Assembly: GCF_003018255.1 (NCBI RefSeq)
Contig: NZ_CP027440.1
Length of the DNA: 64,000 nt
Source of the DNA: Escherichia coli
GTDB lineage: Bacteria; Pseudomonadota; Gammaproteobacteria; Enterobacterales; Enterobacteriaceae
Strand: one strand, 5' to 3'
Positions 24,801-27,800 of the stretch are shown in pieces (the first letter of the stretch is position 1; each line of letters opens with the position of its first letter). The position numbers were made by a program.

Positions 24801-27800
24801 ACATAGAAGGCACCGGCAAAAATTACGCTTTTCGTAATGGTGAATATGTCGATGCGTATTATATGGCGCGGGTGAAGTAAGATAGTGCCCTTTTTCTGAG
24901 ATGGAAAAAGGGTGTCATTCAAAATCTGCATACCTTCCTTTAAGGTATTTATTTGCCCAATACATATATTGAGATTTAACTCATAATTACTTCCTAAAGT
25001 GTAATATTTTATTTTTTAATATATACGCCTACAATTTCCTGGCGTAAATAAATAACAATTAACAAGCATAATATTGCCATTGATAAAATAGCATGCCATA
25101 AAAGGACTTTTCAGGGATGAGTAATATTGTTTACCTGACAGTAACGGGAGAACAACAAGGAAGCATCTCCGCAGGTTGTGGGACTTCTGAGTCTACAGGT
25201 AATCGCTGGCAGAGCGGGCATGAGGATGAAATATTTACATTCTCACTCTTAAATAGTATTACTAATACGGGGCTTGGTTCACAGTTCCATGGTATAACAT
25301 TTTGTAAATTAATTGATAAAAGCACTCCATTATTTATTAATTCCATTAACAATAATGAACAGTTATTTATGGGATTTGACTTCTATCGAATAAATAGATT
25401 TGGCAGATGGGAAAAGTATTATTATATACAACTAAGAGGCGCTTTTTTATCGGCTATTCATCACCAGATCTTTGAAAACCAACTGGATACAGAAACAATA
25501 ACTGTTAGTTATGAATTTATCCTCTGCCAACATCTTATCACTAACACCGAGTTCAGCTATTTGGCACTCCCTGAAAATTATAACCGCTTGTTTTTACCAA
25601 ATTCAAAAAACAAAACAAATAATGGTTTAAAAACGTTAAACAGCGAAGCTGTTGGCAGGCTACTTGCTGCTGGTGGCGTATACAATGGGAACATTGAAGG
25701 TTTCAGAGATACTGCGGAAAAACTGGGTGGAGATGCAATCAAAGGCTATGATCAAATACTAAATGAAAAAACAGCGGGCATAGCGATAGCAACAGCATCT
25801 ATTCTTTTAACAAAGCGTTCTAATGTTGATACATATACAGAAATAAATAGTTACTTAGGCAAACTTAGAGGTCAACAAAAACTTCTTGATGGTATAGACA
25901 TAATAGAAATAATATACATTAAGAGACCTTCAAAAGACTTAGCTAACTTACGAAAGGAGTTTAATAAAACTGTAAGAAAAAATTTTCTTATCAAACTTGC
26001 AAAAACCTCCGAAGAATCTGGAAGATTCAACGCCGAAGACCTTTTAAGAATGAGAAAGGGCAATGTTCCTCTAAATTATAATGTTCACCATAAACTATCT
26101 CTAGATGATGGTGGTACTAATGATTTCGAAAATTTAGTATTAATCGAAAACGAACCATATCATAAAGTTTTTACTAACATGCAATCACGAATAGCTAAGG
26201 GAATATTAGTAGGTGAAAGCAAAATCACTCCCTGGGCCATTCCATTTGGCTCAATTTATCCTCTCATGAAAAATATTATGGAACCCACAAAATGATGACT
26301 AAAACCCAAATAAATAAATTAAAAAAAATGATGAATGATTTAGACTATCCATTTGAAGCACCGCTCAAGGAATCATTTATTGAAAGTATAATCCAAATAG
26401 AATTTAATTCTAATTCAACTAATTTCCTGGAGAAATCATGTAATGAAGTTAGTATTCTTTTTAATAATCAACCTGATTATCTTACTTTTTTAAGAGCAAT
26501 GGATGGATTCGAAGTTAATGGATTACGATTATTTAGCCTCTCGATTCCAGAACCTTCAGTTAAAAACCTTTTTACCGTAAATGAATTTTATAGAAATAAT
26601 GATGATTTCATAAACCCTGATCTACAAGAACGGTTAGTGATCGGGGATGATAGCATTTCAATATTTACTTATGACATTAAAAGTAACTTTTTTGAAATTA
26701 GAGATAATATTGGCACCGAAAATATATTCAGTTCGTTTAGTGATTTCTCTTCATTCTTAAACGAAATCATGGACAGTTGTTCATAATAATCAAAAGGTAA
26801 CAAAAATCATTGTAAACCATGCCATCTTTTTAGAGATTACCAACAGAAAATTCCTTGTTCGAAACTTAGCAAATGCAAGCTATGGAAAAACTTACAACGG
26901 AACTACACTCCTTAAGTAAGATGGGCCGAAGACATGTAATCTCTATTTTAGCCGAAATAGCTAATGGCTATGATGATTTTAGTGACATGTTGATTTAGTT
27001 AGAATTTCACCCGAATCATAAGATTCTGATATCTTAAATAAGAAAATCCCGTTCGACGTTCTGAAAAAGAAATCACAAAATATTAGCAGATACTTATTTC
27101 GTGACTGTATATTATCCGATGAACTTTTTTCAAAACCAGCATTTAATAATATCTTTGACGAAGATGAACACGCCTTTTCTCAAAGTATAACGCAAGAATA
27201 ATAATATAACGCTCAACAATAATATTTATTATAATTATGATTACTTATCACGACGCATTCGCGAAAGCGAACCATTACCTTGATGATGCAGATCTCCCTG
27301 TCGTCATCACTCTGCATGGACGTTTTATCCAGGGCTGGTATTTCTGTTTCGAATCACAAGAATTTCTTGAATCTGGTGATGAGGCCGCGCGCTTAGCCGG
27401 TAACGCACCTTTTATTATTGATAAAGACAGTGGTGAAATTCATTCCCTTGGAACGGCAAAGCCGCTGGAAGAATATCTACAGGATTATGAAATAAAAAAG
27501 GCTACCTTCGGCTTGCCCTGACAATACGGCCCTCTTCCCACGAAGAGGGCCGCTAACCTTAATACCCCGCCGTTAAATCATCTACTGAGCGCGGGTCGGA
27601 TGCGCCGTACAACTCACCGTCAGGCCCAACCATAATGCTTTGTGTACTGCCCATCGCCTCTTTCAGCGCCACTTTCTGACCTTTTGCTTCCAGCAGCTTG
27701 AGCGTATCCGGGCTAAATCCTTTCTCGACACGCAGCTCATCCGGCAACCACTGATGGTGGAAACGCGGTGCATTGGTCGCTTCGGCGACATTCATACCAT

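Follow-up and report, generated by a model that had tools for sequence, protein, structure and literature searches.

The window analysed here, a 64,000-nucleotide stretch of Escherichia coli DNA, carries between yhhY and ggt the genes yhhZ, yrhA and yrhB together with a remnant of yrhD (Table 1). The start codon of yrhA lies within an ATGA overlap with the end of yhhZ, and the two genes constitute the intact form of a known E. coli locus. The GC content of positions 24881–27556 is 0.338, compared with 0.512 for the whole window and 0.52–0.54 for the 10-kb flanks. The preliminary description of this stretch as an AT-rich islet thus holds for its composition, whereas the extent has to be redrawn: in strain C-SRM-3, approximately 95 bp of unrelated sequence stand in place of the yhhZ–yrhA–yrhD segment, and BLAST similarity of that strain to the window breaks at 24878 and picks up at 27221. 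Both yrhB and the hairpin preceding the convergent ggt gene, which had been taken as the end of the islet, lie outside this variable segment and persist in strains lacking it, although the hairpin's perfect stem is as originally described. A consensus scan, covering the yhhZ leader, gave no surplus of promoters or terminators over shuffled sequences; for K-12, PMC12428005 names the promoters yhhZp5 and yhhZp7.

Table 1 Features of the yhhY–ggt interval (window coordinates).
Feature	Position	Strand	Description
Variably present segment yhhZ–yrhA–yrhD	24879–27220	no strand	Delimited by BLAST against a strain lacking the segment; GC 0.28–0.35
Leader between yhhY and yhhZ	24881–25116	+	30% GC; presumed promoter region of the yhhZ–yrhA operon
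yhhZ	25117–26295	+	ORF, 392 aa; predicted specialised Hcp effector, Hcp-ET1 orthologue
Hcp/TssD tube domain of YhhZ	25117–25557	+	Residues 1–147; profile and PDB matches
Helical pre-toxin segment of YhhZ	25630–25848	+	Residues 172–244; alignments and AF2 helices
His-Me finger (HNH) nuclease core of YhhZ	25849–26271	+	Residues 245–385; H324-H325...N339...H349 at 26083–26163
yrhA	26292–26786	+	164 aa, acidic, predicted SUKH fold; putative cognate immunity gene, ETI1 orthologue
yrhD remnant	26873–26998	+	41-aa ORF through premature stop
yrhB	27237–27521	+	94 aa; putative Imm35-family orphan immunity gene
Hairpin between convergent yrhB and ggt	27527–27552	no strand	11-bp perfect GC-rich stem

yrhD is a decayed small ORF, truncated relative to the 51 residues encoded in K-12 and followed by a frame-shifted ORF fragment at approximately 27030–27200; a profile search with yrhD returned no family match. 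The history of yrhB is different from that of the variable segment, its GC content (0.446) and its dS against K-12 (0.21) resembling those of the flanking genes. YrhB matches Pfam Imm35 (PF15567) at 9.2e-22, and the gene for a Pectobacterium homologue with 68% identity overlaps the 3′ end of that for a 5831-aa CdiA carrying PT-VENN and, at its tip, Gln_amidase domains. From this similarity, yrhB is a predicted orphan CdiI-type immunity gene against a glutamine-deamidase CDI toxin, unrelated to the YhhZ system, so that of the ‘immunity-like genes’ originally proposed for the islet only yrhA belongs with the toxin. It shares with other orphan CdiI genes the family and a homologue adjoining a polymorphic toxin, and differs in having no cdiA or CdiA-CT remnant detectable beside it here. 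The possibility that yrhD and the yrhA–yrhB spacer are remains of a CdiA-CT was rejected, tblastn against the Pectobacterium CdiA-CT having found nothing. The hairpin folds at −22.2 kcal/mol on one strand (z = −7.3) and at −25.4 kcal/mol on the other (z = −6.6); because its stem is not followed by a U-run (T-run in the DNA), it is missed by a terminator scan and its terminator function is only inferred.

The N-terminal domain of YhhZ is an Hcp/TssD domain, as the preliminary description had proposed. It scores 115.4 bits with TIGR03344, for which the cut-off is 58.9, matches Pfam T6SS_HCP (PF05638) at 8.8e-11, and aligns with PDB Hcp structures at values from 1.7e-11 (Hcp3, 3he1) to 5.7e-6. 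The domain shares 62% identity with that of Usp; its nearest canonical Hcp, at 39% identity, is the second one encoded in the T6SS cluster at tRNA-Asp (aspV). The pre-toxin segment that precedes the nuclease core is modelled by AF2 as helices, one of which is hydrophobic (TAGIAIATASILL). In alignments this segment accompanies the toxin in Enterobacterales under any N-terminal domain and is missing from the wider toxin family, in which distant profile matches begin at profile position ~80; that it helps the toxin across the inner membrane is speculation.

The C-terminal domain of YhhZ is confirmed, on its predicted fold and residue conservation, as a His-Me (HNH) nuclease. The AF2 model has a pLDDT of 80, exceeding 85 in the toxin core, which shows the β-β-α-metal fold with a general-base His and metal-binding His/Asn residues, and in fold searches matches Cas8-HNH, the Serratia T6SS toxin Rhs2-CT and the colicin and pyocin DNases. 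The motif VHHKLSLDDGGTNDFENLVLIENEPYH (residues 323–349) holds the HH...N...H residues, which are invariant in all 85 distant relatives of the core. The Pfam HNH profile (PF01844), in comparison, gives only a marginal match to YhhZ (E = 0.013, 16.1 bits, residues 322–343 only); among the same relatives it reaches E ≤ 0.001 in 17 of 85 and E ≤ 0.1 in 84 of 85. The core, basic in YhhZ (pI of the toxin part, 9.3), forms the C terminus of 936 representative proteins, and the variety of its secretion-type N-terminal partners, which include PAAR, Tox-PAAR-like, DUF4280, prePAAR, RHS, LXG/WXG100, MuF and eCIS domains, marks it as a true polymorphic-toxin module. In PMC5714182, YhhZ is placed in His-Me finger group 32.

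YhhZ was named an ‘evolved Hcp’ in 2009 (PMC2907695), and Blondel et al. called its HNH domain degenerate. A domain that no longer cuts DNA, and acts for example in DNA binding or as a structural extension of Hcp, would agree with that wording, with the marginal Pfam match and with the lack of visible zinc-finger cysteines in the sequence. We nevertheless regard this as extremely improbable, as the general-base His, structural Asn and metal-binding His are the very residues that do not vary among the 85 relatives, the active colicin and pyocin DNases matched by the fold likewise lack these cysteines, the toxin is invariably accompanied by a dedicated immunity gene, and DNase activity is among the reported properties of Hcp-ET1, discussed below.

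YrhA is small and strongly acidic, as first noted, with a pI of 4.26 and 26 Asp and Glu residues to 13 Lys and Arg residues. It is modelled as the α/β fold of SUKH (SMI1/KNR4) proteins; the sole profile match is NCBIfam NF038335, ‘YrhA family’, some members of which are labelled SMI1/KNR4 in UniRef. A Pfam search returned nothing better than E = 0.14 and no SUKH/SMI1_KNR4 profile, and sequence searches of the PDB with YrhA and YrhB gave noise only. A gene of the YrhA family is always located directly 3′ of the toxin, across four genera and three unrelated N-terminal architectures: besides Hcp, the toxin–YrhA cassette occurs with DUF8093 (PF26362) in Enterobacter and with a third N-terminal domain in a Pantoea conjugative element. 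DUF8093 has no sequence relative in the PDB, and in profile–profile comparison it showed no relation to Hcp or to the third N-terminal domain. This fixed pairing and the predicted fold identify YrhA as the putative cognate immunity protein of the YhhZ toxin, which it would bind.

The combination of an Hcp/TssD domain, a C-terminal His-Me DNase extension and an overlapping downstream immunity gene is that of an ‘Hcp with extended toxin’, and this part of the preliminary description is upheld by domains, fold and gene pairing. The observation is correct and not new: earlier work has described the pair, and tested it, under the name Hcp-ET1/ETI1. Ma et al. are said to have reported in 2017 (Virulence 8:1189) the Hcp-ET1/ETI1 pairs of E. 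coli STEC004, O104:H4 C227-11 and 55989. Reviews and a preprint present Hcp-ET1 as a T6SS2-delivered HNH-DNase effector (PMC6730261, PMC6099711, bioRxiv 10.1101/2024.03.05.583533) and, for the same three strains, as an orphan Hcp–HNH DNase neutralised by the downstream ETI1; the preprint further describes an orphan Hcp–HNH and downstream gene 99% identical to Hcp-ET1/ETI1 of 55989 (bioRxiv 10.1101/2024.03.05.583533).

In strain 55989 the gene order is yhhY–tssD(yhhZ)–yrhA–yrhD–yrhB–ggt, at the same yhhY|ggt site as in the window, and orthology extends to the proteins: YhhZ is identical at 376 of 392 residues (95.9%) and YrhA at 158 of 164 (96.3%). The identification of Hcp-ET1 with the yhhZ-locus gene rests on the reviews and the preprint and on this comparison of the yhhY|ggt locus of 55989. 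The gene, its chromosomal site and the order of an orphan Hcp–HNH gene followed by an immunity gene are common to both strains. They differ in the truncation of yrhD in the window and in 16 amino acid changes in YhhZ, most of which fall within the Hcp domain, within the linker or at the very C terminus; activity of the window allele is predicted by homology. The orthologous K-12 locus, b3442–b3446 (yhhZ–yrhA′–IS1E–yrhD–yrhB), encodes a YhhZ that likewise agrees with that of the window at 376 of 392 residues and differs from that of 55989 at 1 of 392.

A T6SS is encoded elsewhere on the chromosome of the closest complete genome, JNE23-011, which is collinear with the window at 99.35–100% identity. 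Its tRNA-Asp cluster, approximately 1.4 Mb from the islet, contains tssB, C, E, F, G, J, K, L, H, A and M together with Hcp, VgrG and Rhs genes; it has a frameshifted vasL, is 94–97% identical in DNA sequence to the cluster of strain 55989 and occupies the position given for T6SS2 in published accounts. The RefSeq annotation of JNE23-011 lists no T6SS structural gene in the region collinear with the 64 kb. The absence of a secretion system claimed in the preliminary description is thus true of the window only, and its question of whether delivery could depend on a T6SS encoded elsewhere is largely answered. The window does contain T6SS-related cargo, since a PAAR-like Rhs gene, one of a class of T6SS effectors, starts at 62241. 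The evidence for the apparatus comes from a close relative rather than from the window's own genome, for which we infer a working T6SS2 and an active YhhZ allele.

A parallel among known Hcp–DNase fusions is Usp (Hcp-ET3/4) of extraintestinal pathogenic E. coli, which is encoded between aroP and pdhR with the immunity genes Imu1–3 downstream, is present in JNE23-011 and, like YhhZ, lies away from the T6SS cluster. It differs from YhhZ in its locus, in its toxin of pyocin S3/colicin-DNase type and in its three Im-type ‘bacteriocin immunity’ proteins. The Rhs2-CT/RhsI2 pair of Serratia marcescens and the colicin E7/E9 and pyocin S2/AP41 pairs have Rhs/PAAR or colicin receptor and translocation domains for delivery where YhhZ has Hcp, their DNases are only 15–28% identical in sequence to the YhhZ core, and YrhA has a SUKH fold rather than the four-helix fold of Im7/Im9. 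YrhA in turn is set apart from SUKH immunity proteins such as Bacillus subtilis YobK and Bacteroides Tdi1 by its lack of a Pfam SUKH/SMI1_KNR4 match and its membership in a family of its own. The Citrobacter koseri Hcp effector T6EC4 (PMC11148199) was rejected as an orthologue, having a Tox-REase-5 fold and not HNH.

The yhhZ–yrhA pair is probably a two-gene T6SS effector–immunity module encoded apart from the secretion genes, a reading that joins the domain identities, folds, catalytic residues, gene pairing and T6SS of the nearest genome observed here to the DNase toxicity, the neutralisation by the downstream gene and the T6SS2 dependence reported in the literature. The Hcp domain of YhhZ would enter the inner tube of the T6SS, probably sharing rings with ordinary Hcp, and contraction of the sheath would fire the Hcp-borne His-Me finger DNase into neighbouring bacteria, where it would degrade the DNA of the target cell. 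In the producer and its kin, YrhA, a cytoplasmic and acidic protein of SUKH fold, would bind and block the nuclease. Delivery would be effected by the T6SS2-type apparatus at tRNA-Asp.

The distribution of the islet is wider than that of this apparatus. Of 5426 complete E. coli genomes, 4093 carry the islet and 2278 carry T6SS2-type tssBC; a near-complete islet is present in 3757, and by the difference of these totals at least 1479 genomes have it and lack T6SS2-type tssBC. The window allele is rarer, with DNA identity of ≥99% in 3 of the 4093 islet genomes. K-12, which has no T6SS, carries an intact yhhZ and has IS1E inserted in yrhA after codon 130, corresponding to window position 26681/26682, whereas yrhA is uninterrupted in the window, as was recognised at the outset, and the nearest genome has T6SS2. 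Retention of yhhZ in K-12 therefore needs no delivery, and at its native level of expression the gene evidently does not kill the cell. Comparisons within E. coli give a dN/dS of 0.47–0.69 for the pair and of 0.03–0.09 for the flanks, a contrast compatible with relaxed constraint but resting on 25 (yhhZ) and 8 (yrhA) substitutions, too few to separate relaxed from diversifying selection.

These observations bear on the alternative that in this lineage the module is a disarmed relic out of use for attack, with T6SS2 absent or defective or yhhZ silenced in AT-rich DNA, kept because yrhA (and separately yrhB) protects against the toxins of competitors, or in slow decay. The excess of islet carriers over tssBC carriers, the persistence of yhhZ in K-12, the raised dN/dS, the frameshifted vasL of the nearest genome and the decay of yrhD all fit such a relic, and yrhB illustrates that orphan immunity genes are retained here without a toxin. 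We consider it rather unlikely, however, in that the catalytic residues are intact, the yhhZ ORF is intact in the window, K-12, 55989 and Citrobacter, and the clusters of full-length YhhZ proteins are by far the largest (13,190 and 1,877 members). Against Citrobacter koseri the toxin has a dN of 0.17 with dS saturated, which argues for long-term purifying selection on the toxin too, and retention for immunity alone would not need the toxin gene.

A T6SS-independent function, with the nuclease and its SUKH inhibitor forming an intracellular addiction, toxin–antitoxin or abortive-infection module that retains Hcp as a vestige, would account for the T6SS2-less carriers and for the occurrence of the toxin–YrhA cassette under non-Hcp domains, away from T6SS genes, in Enterobacter and Pantoea. 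It is very unlikely: PADLOC defence models match none of YhhZ, YrhA, YrhB and the non-Hcp relatives, disruption of yrhA beside an intact yhhZ is tolerated in K-12, unlike what is expected of an addiction module, and the score of the Hcp domain lies well over its curated cut-off. The other partner domains of the toxin family (PAAR, LXG, RHS, MuF and eCIS) are secretion-related, and T6SS2 delivery has been reported.

The effector–immunity reading leaves a residual, modest question of why many carriers without the reported delivery system keep the islet. In the at least 1479 T6SS2-less carriers, K-12 included, the nuclease–SUKH pair may serve a second, secretion-independent job, and DUF8093 and the third domain of Pantoea may have trafficking or regulatory functions not yet described, although we hold this to be quite unlikely. 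The value of the finding lies in annotation: yrhA is still called uncharacterised in K-12 papers (PMC12428005), even though its orthologue has been reported as ETI1, and the label of putative chaperone persists for yrhB, which appears to be an orphan immunity gene of CdiI type. The toxin gene is kept by three quarters of E. coli genomes, whereas its reported delivery system occurs in less than half of them.

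The window is a piece of Escherichia coli chromosome, collinear across all 64 kb with JNE23-011 (NZ_AP045067.1), the nearest complete genome, at 99.35-100% identity. The yhhZ-yrhA segment, an AT-rich islet between yhhY and ggt (24881-27556), has a GC content of 0.338, compared with 0.512 across the whole window and 0.52-0.54 in the flanks. The hairpin beyond yrhB folds on either strand, with energies of -22.2 and -25.4 kcal/mol (z = -7.3 and -6.6). Rechecking of the open reading frames, ATGA overlap, GC content and hairpin showed the sequence statements of the preliminary description to be correct throughout.

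Features of the window and of the comparison loci (positions are those of the sequence named)
Feature	Sequence	Position	Strand	Remarks
yhhX	window	left of RyhB	-	leftmost gene of the neighbourhood
RyhB sRNA	window	24177-24241	-	Rfam RF00057, 83.1 bits; in the yhhX-yhhY gap, immediately left of the islet; terminator at about 24184-24202
yhhY	window	between RyhB and yhhZ	+	
yhhZ	window	25117-26295	+	
yrhA	window	26292-26786	+	start shares ATGA with yhhZ stop
yrhD, truncated	window	26873-26998		
yrhB	window	27237-27521	+	
11-bp perfect hairpin	window	27527-27552		between yrhB and ggt
ggt	window	right of hairpin	convergent	
doc/phd-type toxin-antitoxin pair	window	~35093-35688	-	between ugpB and livF; by collinearity with JNE23-011 (L001 30213-30808); Fic/PhdYeFM pair at this position in Citrobacter koseri (L008 19474-20060)
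Rhs core protein gene	window	62241-64000, continues past window end	+	3' of nikR; rhsC in the collinear genome's annotation
usp	JNE23-011 (L013)	10413-13869		between aroP and pdhR; range includes the immunity genes that follow
vasL	JNE23-011 (L014)	17772-19182		annotated as frameshifted
DUF8093-toxin plus YrhA cassette	Enterobacter and metagenomes (L004-L007)	10001-11663		
Third N-terminal domain-toxin plus YrhA cassette	Pantoea (L009)	8001-9581		inside conjugative element
cdiA and yrhB homologue	Pectobacterium (L015, L016)	1-7279		
Counterpart of window 24276-24878, including yhhY	strain C-SRM-3 (L019)	4300-4902		85.7% identical

YhhZ had been read as an Hcp-like domain joined to an HNH-type C-terminus, and both halves of that reading held up. 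Residues 1-147 match NCBIfam TIGR03344 at 115.4 bits (cut-off 58.9), and the N-terminus matches Pfam T6SS_HCP at 8.8e-11 and solved Hcp structures at 1.7e-11 to 5.7e-6, marking residues 1-147, by sequence, as a true Hcp/TssD domain. The Pfam HNH match of the C-terminus is weak (E = 0.013), and the HNH call was therefore examined by other means. An AlphaFold2 model of residues 165-392, based on an alignment of 44 homologues, has a mean pLDDT of 80, rising above 85 from about residue 245 on, and its top Foldseek matches are the DNase domains of pyocin S2, pyocin AP41 and colicin E7/E9 (probability 1.00, ~80 residues aligned, 2.5-2.9 Å). Across 85 toxin relatives of 27-49% identity, residues H324-H325, D330, G333, N335, N339, H349 and Q356 do not vary.

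YrhA, proposed as the cognate immunity protein because it is small and acidic and starts on the yhhZ stop, has 164 residues and a pI of 4.26, compared with 9.3 for the toxin part of YhhZ. It has no match in Pfam and belongs to NCBIfam NF038335; its predicted structure (pLDDT 86.5, pTM 0.84) has a SUKH/SMI1-KNR4 fold. A YrhA-family gene lies directly 3' of the toxin in four settings: in Escherichia; in Citrobacter koseri, at the same yhhY-ggt site; in Enterobacter, where DUF8093 replaces Hcp; and in Pantoea, on a conjugative element, with a third N-terminal domain on the toxin. Because toxin and YrhA-family gene stay together through these swaps of delivery domain, there is strong genomic evidence for YrhA as the cognate immunity protein, in agreement with the original proposal.

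The toxin extends well beyond YhhZ. A profile of its toxin part recovered 936 cluster representatives from 1.84 billion proteins, with a conserved core at residues ~245-385 that is always C-terminal, in host proteins of 136-1261 residues. The recognisable N-terminal partners in the 85 of these that were checked (LXG/WXG100, PT-TG, Tox-PAAR-like, PAAR, DUF4280, prePAAR, RHS, MuF, eCIS and Hcp) are the signature of a polymorphic-toxin cassette serving several secretion routes. DUF8093 (PF26362) is joined to the toxin-plus-YrhA cassette in Enterobacter, Leclercia, Klebsiella, Pantoea and Erwinia; no similarity between this domain and Hcp could be detected, and the PDB contains no relatives of it. 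No T6SS genes lie near the DUF8093 or Pantoea third-domain cassettes.

YhhZ has been described before, as an Hcp domain with a degenerate HNH domain, for which the term 'evolved Hcp' was coined (Blondel et al. 2009, PMC2907695), and as His-Me finger group 32 (Jablonska et al. 2017, PMC5714182). According to reviews of Ma et al. 2017 (PMC6730261, PMC6099711, PMC5471719, PMC9990079), Hcp-ET1, from STEC004 and O104:H4, acts as an HNH-DNase effector, with ETI1 as its immunity protein, and its delivery requires T6SS2, not T6SS1. A 2024 preprint (bioRxiv 10.1101/2024.03.05.583533) reports an orphan Hcp-HNH and downstream gene 99% identical to Hcp-ET1/ETI1 in C227-11 and 55989. Strain 55989 carries yhhZ-yrhA-yrhD-yrhB at the same chromosomal site as the window, its YhhZ differing by 1 residue from that of K-12 and by 16/392 from that of the window, and in a search of 5.8 billion proteins the only fusions of Hcp with this toxin from E. 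coli were YhhZ alleles and fragments; we infer that Hcp-ET1/ETI1 are YhhZ/YrhA. One paper (PMC3309015) gave yhhZ-yrhAB of E. coli a role in converting methionine to cysteine, apparently through a mix-up with the Bacillus subtilis genes also named yrhA and yrhB, and yrhA was still called uncharacterised in a 2025 K-12 paper (PMC12428005). The islet is real, rightly interpreted and already known.

The absence of a secretion system holds for the window, in which the annotation of the collinear genome places no T6SS apparatus, but not for JNE23-011 itself, which has a full cluster beside tRNA-Asp, ~1.4 Mb from yhhZ. The cluster comprises tssB, tssC, tssE, tssF, tssG, tagH, tssJ, tssK, tssL, tssH, vasI, tssA and tssM, with a frameshifted vasL, two hcp genes, vgrG and one Rhs gene. 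Several points tie it to the delivery system reported for Hcp-ET1. It shares 94-97% DNA identity across ~22.8 kb with the same-site cluster of 55989, and its tRNA-Asp/yaf position and two-operon layout agree with the published T6SS2 description. The YhhZ Hcp domain has 39% identity with the cluster's second Hcp, 30% with the main Hcp and 62% with the Hcp domain of Usp, another Hcp-toxin fusion in JNE23-011. The 593-residue Usp is followed by three bacteriocin-immunity genes, interspersed with small HNH-motif and hypothetical ORFs. The Rhs protein starting at 62241, with a PAAR/prePAAR-like N-terminus (MSGKPAARQGDMTQYGG...), is the window's second T6SS-type effector, with no apparatus nearby.

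Of the genes noted as immunity-like, yrhA belongs to the YhhZ system and yrhB does not. YrhB is an Imm35 protein (9.2e-22). Its 68% identical Pectobacterium homologue overlaps the stop of a 5831-residue CdiA that bears PT-VENN and, at its tip, Gln_amidase (PF15644) toxin domains, so 'putative heat shock chaperone', as yrhB is labelled in K-12, is probably misleading; a Limnobaculum homologue belongs to a series of small immunity-like genes. The segment present or absent among E. coli strains is 24879-27220, and some strains have yhhY-yrhB-ggt with no further genes between. Since yrhB is kept without yhhZ-yrhA, has a higher GC content (0.446) and a flank-like dS against K-12 (0.21), it is a separate, older orphan immunity gene. 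yrhD is cut by a premature stop (41-residue ORF, 51 in K-12) and has no similarity to the CdiA tip; an open frame fragment (…ILNKKIPFDVLKKKSQNISRYLFRDCILSDELFSKPAFNNIFDEDEHAFSQSITQE) 3' of it in another frame, within 26873-27200, may be the remainder of a decayed small gene. In C-SRM-3, which lacks yhhZ-yrhA, left-flank identity to the window (85.7%) is far below that of the right flank (95.8%).

Values of dS against K-12 are 0.037 for yhhZ and 0.022 for yrhA, 3-10 times lower than for yhhX, yrhB, ggt and yhhA (0.10-0.22), which suggests a spread of the islet through E. coli lineages that postdates the divergence of the flanks. Divergence gives two opposing signals: between the window and K-12 the dN/dS ratios, from small counts, reach 0.47 (yhhZ) and 0.69 (yrhA), with flanking genes at 0.03-0.09, and comparison with Citrobacter koseri (dN 0.17-0.24, dS saturated) indicates long-term constraint. 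The islet is matched in 4093/5426 complete E. coli genomes, over >=80% of its length in 3757, and tssBC of the JNE23-011-type T6SS in 2278, so at least 1479 genomes hold a near-complete islet without that system. K-12 stands at the extreme: it has no T6SS and an intact yhhZ, and an IS1E insertion behind codon 130 splits its yrhA, which is whole in the window as had been noted; evidently K-12 tolerates native yhhZ expression. In JNE23-011 the apparatus may be impaired by the vasL frameshift. The main rival reading, for the window's genome or for many more, is a disarmed relic retained for the immunity it confers. A role independent of secretion is possible with little support, there being no PADLOC match. 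The best explanation is that YhhZ would be an Hcp-DNase effector delivered by T6SS2 and YrhA its SUKH immunity protein, beside yrhB as an unrelated, CdiI-type orphan.
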